The position numbers were made by a program, and so were the translations under genes. Below are positions 39,646-56,105 of a stretch of DNA of 64,000 nt, one piece after another. Each line of letters starts with the position of its first letter. Position 1 is the first letter of the stretch. This DNA comes from Halobacteriovorax sp. GTDB lineage: Bacteria; Bdellovibrionota; Bacteriovoracia; Bacteriovoracales; Bacteriovoracaceae. The stretch lies in NCBI GenBank assembly GCA_020048985.1, contig JAIFLR010000067.1, positions 2,875 through 66,874 on the forward strand. Reading direction: 5' to 3'. The notes under the pieces are model-generated. The model did not search any database and was not told the DNA's origin. It saw only the letters and a program-made list of their open reading frames with translations.

Positions 39646-39661
39646 TGGTTCTATAGGACCA
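39646..39661. repeat. 16-bp palindrome family, site 1: TGGTTCTATAGGACCA (non-coding)
   Basis: Read directly. It abuts the U-run of the atpC terminator and lies about 130 bp upstream of the 698-aa gene start. Confidence 0.85.
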
Positions 39662-39687
39662 AAAAAAAGGCCCGCTTTTGGCGGGCC
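39661..39687 (-). terminator. rho-independent terminator of the atp operon
   Basis: GGCCCGC(39669-75)/GCGGGCC(39681-87) hairpin. The A8 run 39661-68 is a U-run on the minus transcript. Confidence 0.8.
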
Positions 39688-39693
39688 CTCAGA

Positions 39694-40107
39694 TTATTTC
39701 AAATTTGCCAGTCTAAGGCGAAGCTCAGCTCGTTCGAGCTTTCTGCGGAACTTGATGACGTCCACATCACTAAGTGAATCTTTGCCAGATAAACGATCTG
39801 AAGCCTTAGTCTTGGCTGACTTAGCTCTCTCCATATCGATATCTTCAGCTTTTTCAGAAGTGAAAGAAAGAATGGTTACAGTATCTTTTAAAACTCGGCA
39901 CAAACCAGCAGTCACTGAAAAGTGACGAAGGCCCATGGGAGTTTTAACCGTCATAAGACCTGTGCTCAACTCCGTTAAGATGTGAGTGTGGTCAGGGAGG
40001 ATGTTAATCTCTCCCCTAACAGTTGGTACAACAATGTCATTACACTCAAGATCTTTAATTACAACACCTTTAGGTGTGAATAAGTTGAGTTTAAAGGCTG
40101 ATGCCAT
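39694..40107 (-). CDS. atpC: F1 ATP synthase epsilon subunit
   Basis: 137 aa, position after atpD, typical N-terminal beta-sandwich pattern (LNLFTPKGVV...). Confidence 0.93.
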   Translation of the reverse strand: MASAFKLNLFTPKGVVIKDLECNDIVVPTVRGEINILPDHTHILTELSTGLMTVKTPMGLRHFSVTAGLCRVLKDTVTILSFTSEKAEDIDMERAKSAKTKASDRLSGKDSLSDVDVIKFRRKLERAELRLRLANLK

Positions 40108-40109
40108 AA

Positions 40110-41525
40110 TTATTTCCCTTCAGACAACTTCTTAGCTTTTTCATAAACCATTTCAATTCCACCAACAAGGTAGAAAGCTTGTTCAGGAAGATGATCAACT
40201 TCACCGGCAAGAACTGCTTTGAATCCTTTGATGGTATCTTCGATTTTAACGAATTGACCTGGGATACCAGTGAACTGCTCAGCAACGAAGAACGGCTGAG
40301 ATAAGAATTTTTGAATCTTACGAGCACGGCCAACGAGTTTTTTATCATCTTCAGACAATTCATCCATACCAAGAATGGCGATGATATCTTGAAGTTCTTT
40401 ATATTTTTGAAGAACAGACTGAACTTGACGAGCAACTGCATAGTGCTCTTCACCCATAATATCTGGCGAAAGAATCGTCGAAGAAGAAGAAAGAGGATCT
40501 ACCGCTGGGTAAATTCCAAGCTCTGCAATTTGACGAGACAATTCAGTTGTTGCATCCAAGTGAGCAAATGTAGTTGCTGGAGCTGGATCGGTATAGTCAT
40601 CCGCAGGTACGTATACGGCTTGAATAGATGTAATTGATCCATCTTTCGTAGAAGTAATACGCTCTTGCATTGCACCCATTTCAGTAGTTAGAGTCGGCTG
40701 GTAACCCACTGCTGATGGAATACGTCCAAGAAGAGCAGAAACTTCAGATCCCGCTTGTGTAAAACGGAAGATGTTATCTACGAAGAAAAGAACGTCTTGT
40801 TTCTCTTCATCACGGAAATATTCAGCAAGAGAAAGACCAGTCAAAGCAACACGCGCACGTGCACCAGGCGGCTCATTCATCTGGCCGTAGCACAGAGCTG
40901 TTTTTTCAAGAACTCCAGATTCCTTCATTTCGTGCCAAAGATCGTTACCCTCACGAGTACGCTCTCCTACACCAGCGAATACTGAGAAACCACCGTGTTG
41001 AGTAGCGATGTTGTTAATAAGTTCCATAATAAGAACTGTCTTACCAACTCCAGCTCCACCGAAGAGACCAATCTTTCCACCCTTAAGATAAGGAGCAAGA
41101 AGATCGATTACTTTAATACCGGTAAAGAACGGCTCTTTTTTAGTAGATTGATCAGCAAACTTAGGAGCAGCTCTGTGAATCGGGTAACTCTTCTTATTAT
41201 TAAGAGGACCTGCTTCATCAACTGGCTCACCAATAACGTTAATAATACGACCCAAACATTCACGACCAACTGGGGCCTGAATTTGTGCGCCTGTATCTTT
41301 CACTATTTGACCGCGAGCTAGACCTTCAGTTGCATCCATAGCGATACATCTAACCATGTTGTTACCAAGGTGTGATGCTACTTCAACAGTGAGGTTCCCC
41401 TCTCCGCCAGATAATGTCTTGTTCGTAATTTTAAGAGCGTTGTAAAGTGCCGGTAGTTTACCATGAGCAAACTCGACATCAATTACAGGTCCTAGCACTT
41501 GACGAATAACACCTGTGTTTTCCAT
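40110..41525 (-). CDS. atpD: F1 ATP synthase beta subunit
   Basis: [11 protein letters not shown] Walker A, and DELSEDD (DELSEED-like) motif. Confidence 0.97.
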
Positions 41526-41536
41526 TTAAAGGCTCC

Positions 41537-54021: not shown

Positions 54022-55626
54022 ATGACACAAAAGTTTCCATTTGATCATTTTCTTAAGCTCGATAACCTTAACGACGTGCAGCCAGCTCTCCAAAAGACTG
54101 AAATGCCTGTTTCACCCGTTATAATAGAGCAAACCCTGAAGTCGATATCGACTTCTCAGCCAAAACTGGCCCCTGAATTTTCCTCAGAAGAATTAAAGAC
54201 TATTACTGAAGCCGTTCTTGAGCATATTAAAAGCCTGATTAATCCCAATAAGTTTCATGCTTATTTTTCAAATACCCTGACAGTTTCGGCGATTAGCCCG
54301 GACGCTGTTGAGTTCGTAGTGACCACCAGCTTTATCAAAAAAATGGTGGAGACTCATTACCAGGATACTATCAAGCAAGCGCTGGTGGAGATCCTAGGGA
54401 AAGAGTACCAGCTGGTTATTCAGGTATTGGGTTCAAATGCTTCGATGAGCTCTAACGAAGGTAACATCCTAAATTCTATTAAGCCGGAAAAGAAAACTGA
54501 TGCTCCCAAGGTAAATTCATTTTTTATTCAGGATCTAACTCATACCAAAGATGATCTTTATAAAGCTGTAGACTCCCAAGTAATTGAGCACATGTCGTCC
54601 CCTGCTCCTTCGCAAATTGATACCCAAAAAACTTTTGAGAATTTCATCATTGGGCCTTCAAATAATATTGCCCATGCTTTGGCCATGGCAGTGGCAAAAG
54701 ACCCGGGAAAAACTTATCCCGCGCTGTATGTCTACGGAAACTCAGGCTTAGGAAAGACTCATTTAGTGCATGCAATTGCTAACTGCATTCAAAACAATAA
54801 ACCAAGTTCACGTATTTCAATAACGTCTGCCAATAAATTCATGAATGAAATGATCCAGGCGATGCAAGGCCAAAAGTTCACTGAATTCAGACAAAAGTAC
54901 GTCGAGAAAACCGATGTTTTAATTATTGATGATATCCACGAATTGAAGAATAGAACGGGAACACAAGATCAGTTTTTCCATATTTTCAACGAACTCATGG
55001 AAAGAGGAAAACAACTTGTTTTTACCTCTGATAAACCGCCTAAAGAAATTGATGGGATTGAAGACAGAATCAGAACCAGACTTTCTTCTGCGCTTCCAGT
55101 TGAAGTTCAGCAGCCAGATCTTGAAACAAGAATCGCTATTTTGAAAAAGAAAGCTATCGAAAAAGATATCTATCTAAGCGATGACGTAGTTAATCTTATT
55201 GCTAAATGCGTAAAGAGCAATATTCGTGAACTAGAAGGCTGCTTGATCAAGCTCGGTGCAGTGACTTCAATCCTTAAGGTTGATATCGATCTAGAGGTGG
55301 CCAAAGAGCATTTGAACCTAAATGAAGAGCTTGAGAACCAAAAGCACATAACAATTGAGACGATCACTAAGACCGTTTGTAACTACTTCAAAATTCCTCT
55401 TGGTGACCTTCGCGGTAAGTCTAAAACCAAAGAAGTGGCCTTGCCTCGCCAAGTATCTATGTACCTCATTAATAAGCTCATAAAGCCTACTTTAAAGGAC
55501 AATGGGCAGTATTTCGGTGGTCGAGACCACTCTACTGTTCTTCATGCCATAAATACCATCCGTGATAGAATTAAGCTTGATTCACAACTGGCCCAGCAAG
55601 TACTGGATATAGAAAAACAGCTCTAG
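54022..55626 (+). CDS. dnaA: chromosomal replication initiator DnaA
   Basis: GNSGLGKTHL Walker A, IIDDIH box, and C-terminal DNA-binding helix (RQVSMYL...GGRDHSTVLHA). ATG 54022 is preferred over TTG 53950. The domain I-II region (~200 aa) is longer than in E. coli. Confidence 0.95.
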   Translation: MTQKFPFDHFLKLDNLNDVQPALQKTEMPVSPVIIEQTLKSISTSQPKLAPEFSSEELKTITEAVLEHIKSLINPNKFHAYFSNTLTVSAISPDAVEFVVTTSFIKKMVETHYQDTIKQALVEILGKEYQLVIQVLGSNASMSSNEGNILNSIKPEKKTDAPKVNSFFIQDLTHTKDDLYKAVDSQVIEHMSSPAPSQIDTQKTFENFIIGPSNNIAHALAMAVAKDPGKTYPALYVYGNSGLGKTHLVHAIANCIQNNKPSSRISITSANKFMNEMIQAMQGQKFTEFRQKYVEKTDVLIIDDIHELKNRTGTQDQFFHIFNELMERGKQLVFTSDKPPKEIDGIEDRIRTRLSSALPVEVQQPDLETRIAILKKKAIEKDIYLSDDVVNLIAKCVKSNIRELEGCLIKLGAVTSILKVDIDLEVAKEHLNLNEELENQKHITIETITKTVCNYFKIPLGDLRGKSKTKEVALPRQVSMYLINKLIKPTLKDNGQYFGGRDHSTVLHAINTIRDRIKLDSQLAQQVLDIEKQL

Positions 55627-55770
55627 TTTTCAGTTTCAACATTTTAAACAACATCAACATACGTTTATCACCACCGGATTAGTCTGGTGGTGGTGACTAG
55701 TCAGCATTTTTAGCCCCAAAAAAGTCCCTATTAACAATTAAATGTTTGGAAAATTGAACCAACACTAAAA

Positions 55771-55969
55771 CCATCCACATTGTTGAACAAAATGTGGGTA
55801 AAAAGAGAGTTAACGTTAAGTGCTTAAATAAAAAGATCGCAAAAAACACTGACTCAAGGCGCTACTAAAATATATTTAAATAAATGTGTGGATGAAAGGC
55901 GAATTACACACTGACCAAACCTAGATATACGCACGATAAAAAATAGTTAATTGAGGCAGGCGTGGATGA
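55771..55969. promoter_or_regulatory. cluster of DnaA-box-like 9-mers
   Basis: CCATCCACA (55771-79), TGTGGGTAA (55793-801), TGTGGATGA (55887-95) and CGTGGATGA (55961-69), each 1-2 mismatches from TTATCCACA/TGTGGATAA. Three share GTGGATG. Confidence 0.5.
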
Positions 55970-56040
55970 ATTGGCAGAAAAACCTACCTAAAGCCTCTGA
56001 ATTATTAAATGACCCGAAATCTGTAAACATTGTCCGCGCT

Positions 56041-56070
56041 TAATATTATAAGAATATATATAAAAACTAT
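56041..56070. other. AT-rich tract, candidate DNA unwinding element
   Basis: taatattataagaatatatataaaaactat is almost pure A/T and lies between the DnaA boxes and dnaN. Confidence 0.4.
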
Positions 56071-56089
56071 AAGAAGAAGAGAAAGGAAA

Positions 56090-56105
56090 TGGTCCTATGG
56101 GGGCA
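56090..56105. repeat. 16-bp palindrome family, site 8 (one core mismatch): TGGTCCTATGGGGGCA (non-coding, inside putative oriC)
   Basis: Read directly. 14/16 identical to the parB copy TGGTTCTATAGGGGCA. It ends 56 nt before the dnaN ATG. Confidence 0.6.

Follow-up and report, generated by a model that had tools for sequence, protein, structure and literature searches.

A 64,000-nucleotide stretch of Halobacteriovorax sp. DNA (GCA_020048985.1, contig JAIFLR010000067.1, positions 2,875 to 66,874; hereafter the window) holds, in the 16.5 kb to the left of dnaN, eight copies of a 16-bp imperfect palindrome that resembles the ParB site parS in its outer arms. This raises the question of whether selection maintains the DNA or the peptides that it encodes, and what kind of factor would read the sites. 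An initial annotation of the window, made from the letters alone, had proposed that they serve a ParB/Noc-like paralogue or another dimeric factor acting at the origin. Here we report that the motif is under strong DNA-level purifying selection across the whole class Bacteriovoracia, and we argue that its copies are probably sites of a dimeric protein other than canonical ParB.

Eight copies of one palindrome lie beside the origin

A pattern search of the 64 kb with TGSYYCTATAGRRSCA found eight copies, five exact and three with one mismatch, at the coordinates first listed for them and in the described contexts, namely parB, mnmE, yidC and mnmG codons and two non-coding spots (Table 1). No further copy with ≤2 mismatches occurs in 1-39645 or 56106-64000, and the proposed confinement therefore holds, with eight copies in 16.5 kb against none in the other 47.5 kb of the window (0-0.5 expected). 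The excess also survived the dinucleotide-shuffle control suggested at the outset: shuffled sequences gave 0.00 exact matches and, at ≤2 mismatches, a mean of 0.51 (maximum 3), compared with the eight observed. At three mismatches the whole window adds only six weak strings, and isolated half-sites are almost absent. The 40-bp flanks of the eight copies have no sequence in common, so the motif is a short autonomous element and not a piece of a longer repeat. Five of the coding copies, one in parB and two each in mnmE and yidC, are read in the frame [G/A]-P-I/T-[E/G]-[P/A], and the mnmG copy is read as R-S-Y-R-T. Pfam confirmed the gene order parB-parA-rsmG-mnmG-mnmE-yidC-(rnpA)-dnaA-dnaN; the cumulative GC skew has its minimum near 56 kb, and DnaA-box-like sequences occur in the dnaA-dnaN spacer, where an AT-rich stretch adjoins copy 8.

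Table 1. Motif copies, canonical parS sites and candidate or known DNA-binding genes in the window
Feature	Position	Strand	Sequence	Context
Motif copy 1	39646..39661	.	TGGTTCTATAGGACCA (exact)	Non-coding, between atpC terminator and start of a 698-amino-acid open reading frame
Motif copy 2	46721..46736	.	TGGTTCTATAGGGGCA (exact)	parB N-terminal linker; coding strand T GCC CCT ATA GAA CCA (A-P-I-E-P)
Motif copy 3	49778..49793	.	TGGTTCTATAGGACCG (1 mismatch)	mnmG, other reading frame (R-S-Y-R-T)
Motif copy 4	50539..50554	.	TGCCCCTGTAGGACCA (1 mismatch)	mnmE 3' third (G-P-T-G-A)
Motif copy 5	51463..51478	.	TGGTTCTATAGGACCA (exact)	mnmE 5' part (G-P-I-E-P)
Motif copy 6	52884..52899	.	TGGTTCTATAGGACCA (exact)	yidC N-terminal linker (G-P-I-E-P)
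Motif copy 7	52953..52968	.	TGCCTCTATAGGGGCA (exact)	yidC N-terminal linker (A-P-I-E-A)
Motif copy 8	56090..56105	.	TGGTCCTATGGGGGCA (1 mismatch)	Non-coding, dnaA-dnaN intergenic (putative oriC), 57 bp upstream of dnaN, beside AT-rich stretch
Canonical parS	47756..47771	.	TGTTCCACGTGGAACA	rsmG region; among motif copies, outside the motif family
Canonical parS	50224..50239	.	TGTTCCACGTGGAACA	mnmE/mnmG junction; 300 bp from motif copy 4
parB	45926..46825	-		Sole ParB-family gene in the window; canonical parS-type specificity residues
p112	34471..34809	-		Clade-restricted 112-amino-acid predicted winged helix plus coiled coil; speculative candidate binder

The motif is conserved at origin loci throughout the Bacteriovoracia

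A scan with MnmG, one genome per species, yielded 47 related 20-kb loci (designated by L numbers below), 42 of which belong to Bacteriovoracaceae, Halobacteriovoraceae or other Bacteriovoracia, with 54-88% MnmG identity. These matches place the window in a predatory bacterium of Bacteriovorax type, in the Bacteriovoracaceae. Nearly every Bacteriovoracia locus carries 4-12 motif copies, many of them at orthologous positions; the motif was found in ~90 origin loci across the class, and its conservation reaches down to ~46-57% MnmG identity. It was absent from two Bdellovibrionales loci (L044 and L045), two Firmicutes loci (L043 and L047) and an unclassified bacterium (L041). When the window and all Bacteriovoracia loci were combined, 503 copies (≤1 mismatch) fell in 888 kb of the interval from rnpA/dnaA to atpC (+2 kb), and none in the 170.5 kb outside it, which comprises the dnaN-recF-gyrB-gyrA side and the DNA past the atp operon. 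Seven more loci reaching 10 kb beyond atpC, from two related genome lineages, added only the known post-atpC copy.

Individual copies recur at orthologous positions to different extents. In 25 of 31 orthologues the parB copy falls in one and the same column of the alignment, its flanks being variable and rich in indels; in yidC, copy 6 is present in 23 of 33 orthologues and copy 7 in about 18-21 of 33, and copy 5 of mnmE lies at codons 43-45 in ~22 of 34. Counterparts of copy 8 stand at the equivalent non-coding place in L002, L006, L010, L012 and L039. The post-atpC site, as one copy or as an array of 2-4, is found in many relatives (L015, L018-L020, L022-L025, L034, L040, L157 and L180-182), though not in all, being missing at the orthologous position in L176-L178. 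The copy in mnmG lies at codon ~166 or at codon ~472 depending on the lineage, and that associated with parB is in the N-terminal linker in Bacteriovoracaceae and just past the stop codon in Halobacteriovoraceae-like contigs. The two mnmG positions indicate that sites turn over while the region keeps them.

Selection acts on the DNA and not on the encoded peptide

Among 251 copies in genome loci, ~170 are in frame for G/A-P-I-E/G-P/A, the frame that holds most of the coding copies in the class. Such a bias would follow if the conserved unit were this peptide, for example a linker or a protease site, and the palindrome its by-product; the identical 16-mer also arises in viral collagen-like GPIGP repeats. 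However, 25-30 copies are read in a second frame (R/W-S-Y-R-T, in mnmG), another 11 lie in a third frame, and ~35 are non-coding. In the third frame CTACAG replaces CTATAG (TAC for TAG), the smallest change that abolishes the stop codon. One position matrix is common to the frame-1 (n = 190), frame-0 (n = 30), frame-2 (n = 11) and non-coding (n = 35) classes, none of which has conserved flanks. The frame bias is itself accounted for by the genetic code, because one of the three frames contains the stop codon and another encodes the bulky W-S-Y-R-T.

In codon alignments of yidC and parB the 16 nucleotides do not vary, although the linkers around them are hypervariable in both sequence and length, so that the DNA motif persists at orthologous positions while the peptide varies, and the coding copies do sit in variable, linker-like parts of their proteins, as had been judged by eye. 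The motif opens with a T in the wobble position of the preceding codon, which encodes 15 different amino acids. When instances were ascertained by peptide instead of DNA, taking every [GA]PI[EG][PA] in four gene families (111 instances), Ile was encoded by ATA in 107 of 111 (background 20%), Gly by GGT in 64 of 64 (background 40%) and Ala by GCC in 47 of 47 (background 22%), and the preceding wobble base was T in 95 and C in 16, never A or G. Synonymous-codon shuffling of the four window coding sequences destroyed the signal: 1000 trials averaged 0.33 copies (≤1 mismatch) and never exceeded 2, versus the six observed. The frozen codons and the outcome of the synonymous shuffle establish that the constraint acts on DNA. 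A conserved peptide, to which we assign a negligible probability, is ruled out by the codon and wobble statistics, the non-coding and other-frame copies and the shuffle, and the earlier assertion of DNA-level conservation stands.

The two half-sites are constrained independently

The consensus is T-G-[GT/CC]-Y-C-T-A-T-A-G-R-[AC/GG]-C-A, composed of two 8-bp half-sites that are each either TGGTYCTA (GT) or TGCCCCTA (CC). A perfect palindrome of this kind could make a 6-bp stem with a 4-nt loop, and the conserved object might then be an RNA or DNA hairpin or a cruciform, acting for example in mRNA, in replication or in recombination. Among 505 sites, however, the half-sites combine freely (336 GT/GT, 134 CC/GT hybrids and 9 CC/CC), and complementary bases stand at positions 3-14 and 4-13 in only 70% of them and at positions 5-12 in only 29%. 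As the half-sites do not covary, selection is not maintaining a stem. The sites also match no Rfam family, and on these two grounds we rule out a hairpin or RNA element, which was in any case a very improbable reading. Each half-site is constrained independently, which fits what is expected of a dimeric DNA-binding protein.

Tandem arrays expand in frame inside mnmE

Copy 4 marks the position in mnmE at which distant relatives carry tandem arrays. There the single copy in the 3' third of the gene is replaced by 2-11 copies with periods of 24, 27, 30 or 36 bp, which stay in frame and encode GPIEP-x3-7 repeats in MnmE. The resulting insertions of up to ~80 residues come after the G domain and before the C-terminal helical region, as in L036 (6026-6260), L026 (4049-4185), L130 (3324-3580) and L168 (944-1360). 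When 241 million metagenome records were searched for pairs of copies separated by 5-35 nt, 47 contigs were recovered: 45 had the array in mnmE, all with the same yidC-mnmE-mnmG-rsmG-parA-parB synteny, one after atpC and one between parB and the bactofilin gene. No array occurred in any other genomic, plasmid or phage context in these records. A scan of viral contigs for single copies returned only chance-level matches, GPIGP collagen-like genes and one unrelated, longer repeat family, and no phage or plasmid context pointing to a binder.

The growth and shrinkage of arrays between lineages could suggest a selfish or defence sequence, for instance a small mobile repeat, the target of a homing enzyme or a recombinase, or a cluster of methylation or restriction sites; the core CTATAG and its variants CTGTAG and CTACAG may also fit a CTRYAG-type pattern. 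Against such an origin, the flanks are unconserved, orthologous positions are held across the whole class, the flanking DNA has no copies, arrays are missing elsewhere in the metagenomes, the phage matches are not relevant ones, and the conserved length of 16 bp exceeds that of typical methyltransferase sites. We found neither the conservation past the core nor the scattered copies that characterize interspersed repeats, including miniature inverted-repeat transposable elements and repetitive extragenic palindromic sequences. A mobile repeat is thus ruled out by the unconserved flanks and the lack of copies in the 170.5 kb outside the interval, and selfish or defence sequences as a whole are highly unlikely.

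Two families of viral matches deserve mention. Collagen-like Gly-X-Y genes (GPIGP...) in viral contigs L072, L080, L096, L104 and L111 make TGGTCCTATAGGACCA by chance, a caveat for any genome- or metagenome-wide search with the motif. The 191-kb contig IMGVR_UViG_638275427_000001 (L067, L107, L108, L113 and L121) contains an unrelated dispersed repeat with the motif-like core TGGTTCTWTAGAACCA, ~40 bp of conserved flank on each side and a GC content of 41-48%.

The motif is distinct from parS and from Noc-binding sites

Comparison with the parS consensus TGTTNCACGTGNAACA showed 10 of 16 bases in common and 6 of 16 different, in agreement with the 9-10 positions estimated initially. Both elements are 16-bp palindromes repeated several times in the few kb around oriC, frequently within conserved coding genes (the gidA/gidB/parB region), and conserved over a wide phylogenetic distance, and in its origin-proximal location and its conservation across relatives the motif behaves as parS does. 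In sequence it does not: the centre is TATA where parS has ACGT, position 3 is G or C where parS has T, and there are two alternative half-site flavours. Tandem in-frame arrays, moreover, are not known as a feature of chromosomal parS. Scanning the window for the parS consensus at ≤2 mismatches gave only the sites at 47756 and 50224, with which the motif copies are indeed interleaved. One to three copies of canonical parS coexist with the motif in nearly all Bacteriovoracia loci, and de novo clustering of near-palindromic 16-mers recovered only these two elements; the same clustering found no analogous palindrome clusters in the two Bdellovibrionales loci. The motif is therefore separate from parS and coexists with it. 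Two further observations concern parS itself: L023, a 21.8-kb Oligoflexia/Bacteriovoracia locus from a metagenome-assembled genome, has eight motif copies and no parS within one mismatch, and several Halobacteriovoraceae-like loci have parS only as one-mismatch variants (TGTTCTACGTGGAACA).

The ParB of the window is closest to Myxococcus ParB (7bnk). Aligned with Caulobacter ParB (6t1f), its GKERS...FGHAK corresponds to G170-K171-S172-R173 and G201-H-A-R204. Arg173 and Gly201 form the parS-specifying pair that is invariant in parS-specific variants (Jalal et al., PMC7383237), and their equivalents are invariant in 31 of 31 ParB orthologues here. Given these retained residues and the perfect parS sites beside the motif, the sequences suggest that ParB most likely reads parS and that the motif most likely needs another reader, a dual specificity of ParB being possible but less probable.

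The copies could instead be secondary or alternative sites of canonical ParB, a second parS class that enlarges the ParB loading zone. The 10 positions shared with parS, the location at most a few kb from parS and inside a typical ParB spreading zone, and the lack of another ParB-family gene nearby would all be compatible with this. So would the Lys that ParB has at the position equivalent to 184, a residue permissive for altered specificity (PMC7383237). Nevertheless, perfect canonical parS is kept in the same loci, ParB retains R173/G201-type residues, the differences fall on the central four bases and position 3, and neither the half-site scan nor the palindrome clustering revealed sequences intermediate between motif and parS. 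We consider this explanation unlikely.

Noc of Firmicutes offers a precedent for divergence creating a separate system, in which a dedicated paralogue reads a diverged site, the Noc-binding site (NBS; consensus TATTTCCCGGGAAATA; PMC7383237). The motif is likewise a parS-like palindrome that has diverged at a few positions per half-site, but it does not match TATTTCCCGGGAAATA, and no noc-like ParB paralogue, which typically lies beside parAB, was found there in the window and the 47 loci. The motif copies form a tight cluster beside oriC, whereas NBS sites are distributed along the chromosome arms.

A second origin-domain complex is the probable explanation

The site-bearing genes form a long co-directional string on one strand, and some intergenic copies lie upstream of genes, namely dnaN, the 698-amino-acid open reading frame and, in L148, the bactofilin gene. 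The sites might therefore be operators of a transcription factor that regulates or roadblocks yidC-mnmE-mnmG-rsmG-parAB-bactofilin-atp, with no part in chromosome organization. Most copies, however, are deep in coding regions at in-gene positions that shift between lineages, arrays of up to 11 copies in mnmE are atypical for operators, and 170 kb of flanking DNA has no copy upstream of any other gene, making operators an improbable account.

The data are probably best explained by a model in which the motif is a class-wide cis-element of the Bacteriovoracia, made up of sites at which a dimeric, sequence-specific DNA-binding protein, distinct from canonical ParB, would form a second centromere-like or origin-domain complex. 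Each 8-bp half-site would be read independently by one subunit. Sites would be kept at high local density, as singles or in arrays of up to 11 tandem copies, over a stretch of ~16 kb from oriC across yidC-mnmE-mnmG-rsmG-parA-parB-bactofilin-atp, with the parS sites within it, and the nucleoprotein complex would stand alongside ParB-parS. Its role may be in origin positioning, in segregation or anchoring, or in replication control. The analysis shows purifying selection on the DNA, confinement to the origin-proximal interval, class-wide conservation, independent half-sites and a distinction from parS; the binding of a protein, its identity and the role of the complex are inferred. Of the initial proposal, the general form is supported by the dimeric half-site behaviour and the confinement to ~16 kb on one side of oriC, while the specific suggestion of a ParB/Noc paralogue finds no support in the nearby genes.

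Several observations weigh against this model. Searches by tblastn with ParB returned one ParB gene per locus in the window and the 47 related loci, with no second ParB/Noc-like gene, and Pfam and NCBIfam searches of the larger open reading frames of the window revealed no clear ParB-like or helix-turn-helix (HTH) binder apart from a sub-threshold HTH_17 match of p112. A single recognition helix would not usually read alternatives coupled as GT/CC at positions 3-4. Because the many orthologous copies share their ancestry, they are not independent observations, and the raw counts exaggerate the statistical weight. All of the control DNA lies within ~60 kb of oriC and is thus still origin-proximal, and the absence from Bdellovibrionales refers to two short loci (L044 and L045) that are perhaps not syntenic.

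Candidate binders and analogous systems

A candidate among the small proteins is p112, whose family is small (375 matches; 62-97% identity to p112 among the 120 listed) and has a homologue in the Halobacteriovoraceae-like contig L157. Its synteny, atp-p698-SLT-patatin-p112-p486-ligA-radA, is conserved. The AlphaFold2 prediction (predicted local distance difference test score 81) is a winged helix of MerR/excisionase-like type in beta-alpha-alpha-beta-beta order and, after it, a long helix of 44 residues, a likely coiled coil. Pfam gave a sub-threshold match (HTH_17, E 0.0015). Foldseek matches were weak and all to winged-helix DNA binders, among them BldC (probability 0.97, root-mean-square deviation 1.9 A over 41 residues), MerR, MarR and ArsR; the match to RacA-DNA was also weak (probability 0.6, E 0.59). 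On the strength of this predicted fold p112 is a speculative candidate for the motif binder, with nothing linking it to the motif. Its gene overlaps the start of 33014-34474 (-) and is translationally coupled to the 486-amino-acid p486, which looks like an envelope protein with a signal peptide; a putative partner of this kind does not point to a role at the chromosome. The C-terminal tail PPELP of p112 is conserved, and some sources mis-annotate the protein as MreC. Two other products encoded in the window were considered: the 64-amino-acid open reading frame at 1097-1288 had no significant family match, and the 698-amino-acid protein downstream of copy 1 is an unlikely binder, being acidic, of low complexity and equipped with signal or transmembrane segments.

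RacA and ram of Bacillus subtilis offer a close parallel in layout, in that ram, a GC-rich 14-bp inverted repeat clustered around the origin, is bound by a MerR-like protein with a winged helix and a coiled coil and organizes or anchors the origin. The motif, too, forms a cluster of short inverted repeats near the origin that are not parS, and the predicted fold of p112, with its sub-threshold matches, would give it the general architecture of RacA. The two systems differ in that their sequences are unrelated and in that the structural match of p112 is weak. The ram sites are spread over hundreds of kb. A more specific form of our model, a second, ParB-independent origin-domain system whose binder might be p112, acting like RacA, or else a ParB-family paralogue encoded away from this locus, is possible, but we put it forward tentatively and regard it as the less likely outcome.

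The mnmE arrays of distant relatives, with 2-11 tandem 16-bp inverted repeats and variable spacers, recall sopC of the F plasmid, in which a 43-bp unit occurs 12 times, every unit containing a 16-bp inverted repeat that SopB binds. In contrast to sopC, these arrays sit on the chromosome in the reading frame of an essential gene, no dedicated partition operon is adjacent apart from the canonical parAB, and the searches turned up neither a plasmid nor a phage context. In the window itself all copies are single and dispersed.

Other features of the window

Directly downstream of parB lies a bactofilin gene (45574-45909, -; Pfam PF04519, E 1e-27), and in the Halobacteriovoraceae-like contig L148 a two-copy motif array stands just upstream of its orthologue. 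The linkage of parAB to bactofilin recalls the BacNOP/PadC-ParABS arrangement of Myxococcus. The dnaA open reading frame (53950-55626, +; 558 amino acids, TTG start) is probably over-extended, as the DnaA N-terminal domain begins at ~residue 87. Farther from the origin, a histidine-utilisation cluster (aromatic amino-acid lyase/HutH, urocanase and amidohydrolase) occupies 22980-27390 (+), ~30 kb from oriC, and 11919-14042 (-) encodes a secreted-looking protein of 707 amino acids with an extremely Q/N/Y/G-rich, prion-like C-terminal tail (NPYQQQ repeats) and no Pfam match.

Implications

The exact sequences of the motif were not found in the literature searched, nor did we find a description of it there, as the initial annotation had supposed. 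Neither the Bacteriovorax chromatin study by Hi-C and the assay for transposase-accessible chromatin (ATAC; PMC11789641) nor the B. marinus genome paper (PMC3526173) mentions it; the former treats parS in general terms only and notes, close to the origin, a large intergenic space with very strong ATAC signal forming a peak. As well conserved as parS across a class of predatory bacteria, the motif appears undescribed in that literature. Origin-proximal cis-elements have been informative before, parS, ram and NBS each having led to a major chromosome-organization system, and the motif could serve as bait for a new origin-binding factor, for which a protein recognizing both TGGTCCTATAGAACCA and TGCCCCTATAGAACCA while leaving parS unbound would qualify.

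The motif also represents a clear natural case in which DNA-level selection overrides protein sequence and in-frame site arrays are tolerated in essential housekeeping genes, which is relevant to genome annotation and to models of overlapping codes. If the more specific, ParB-independent system outlined above exists, this selection would be strong enough to force repeat insertions of up to 80 residues into the essential GTPase MnmE. The biology of these organisms is unusual, with filamentous growth, non-binary division and histone-based chromatin, and under that tentative reading the complex could be needed to place or count origins while the predators grow within prey in their filamentous, non-binary manner.

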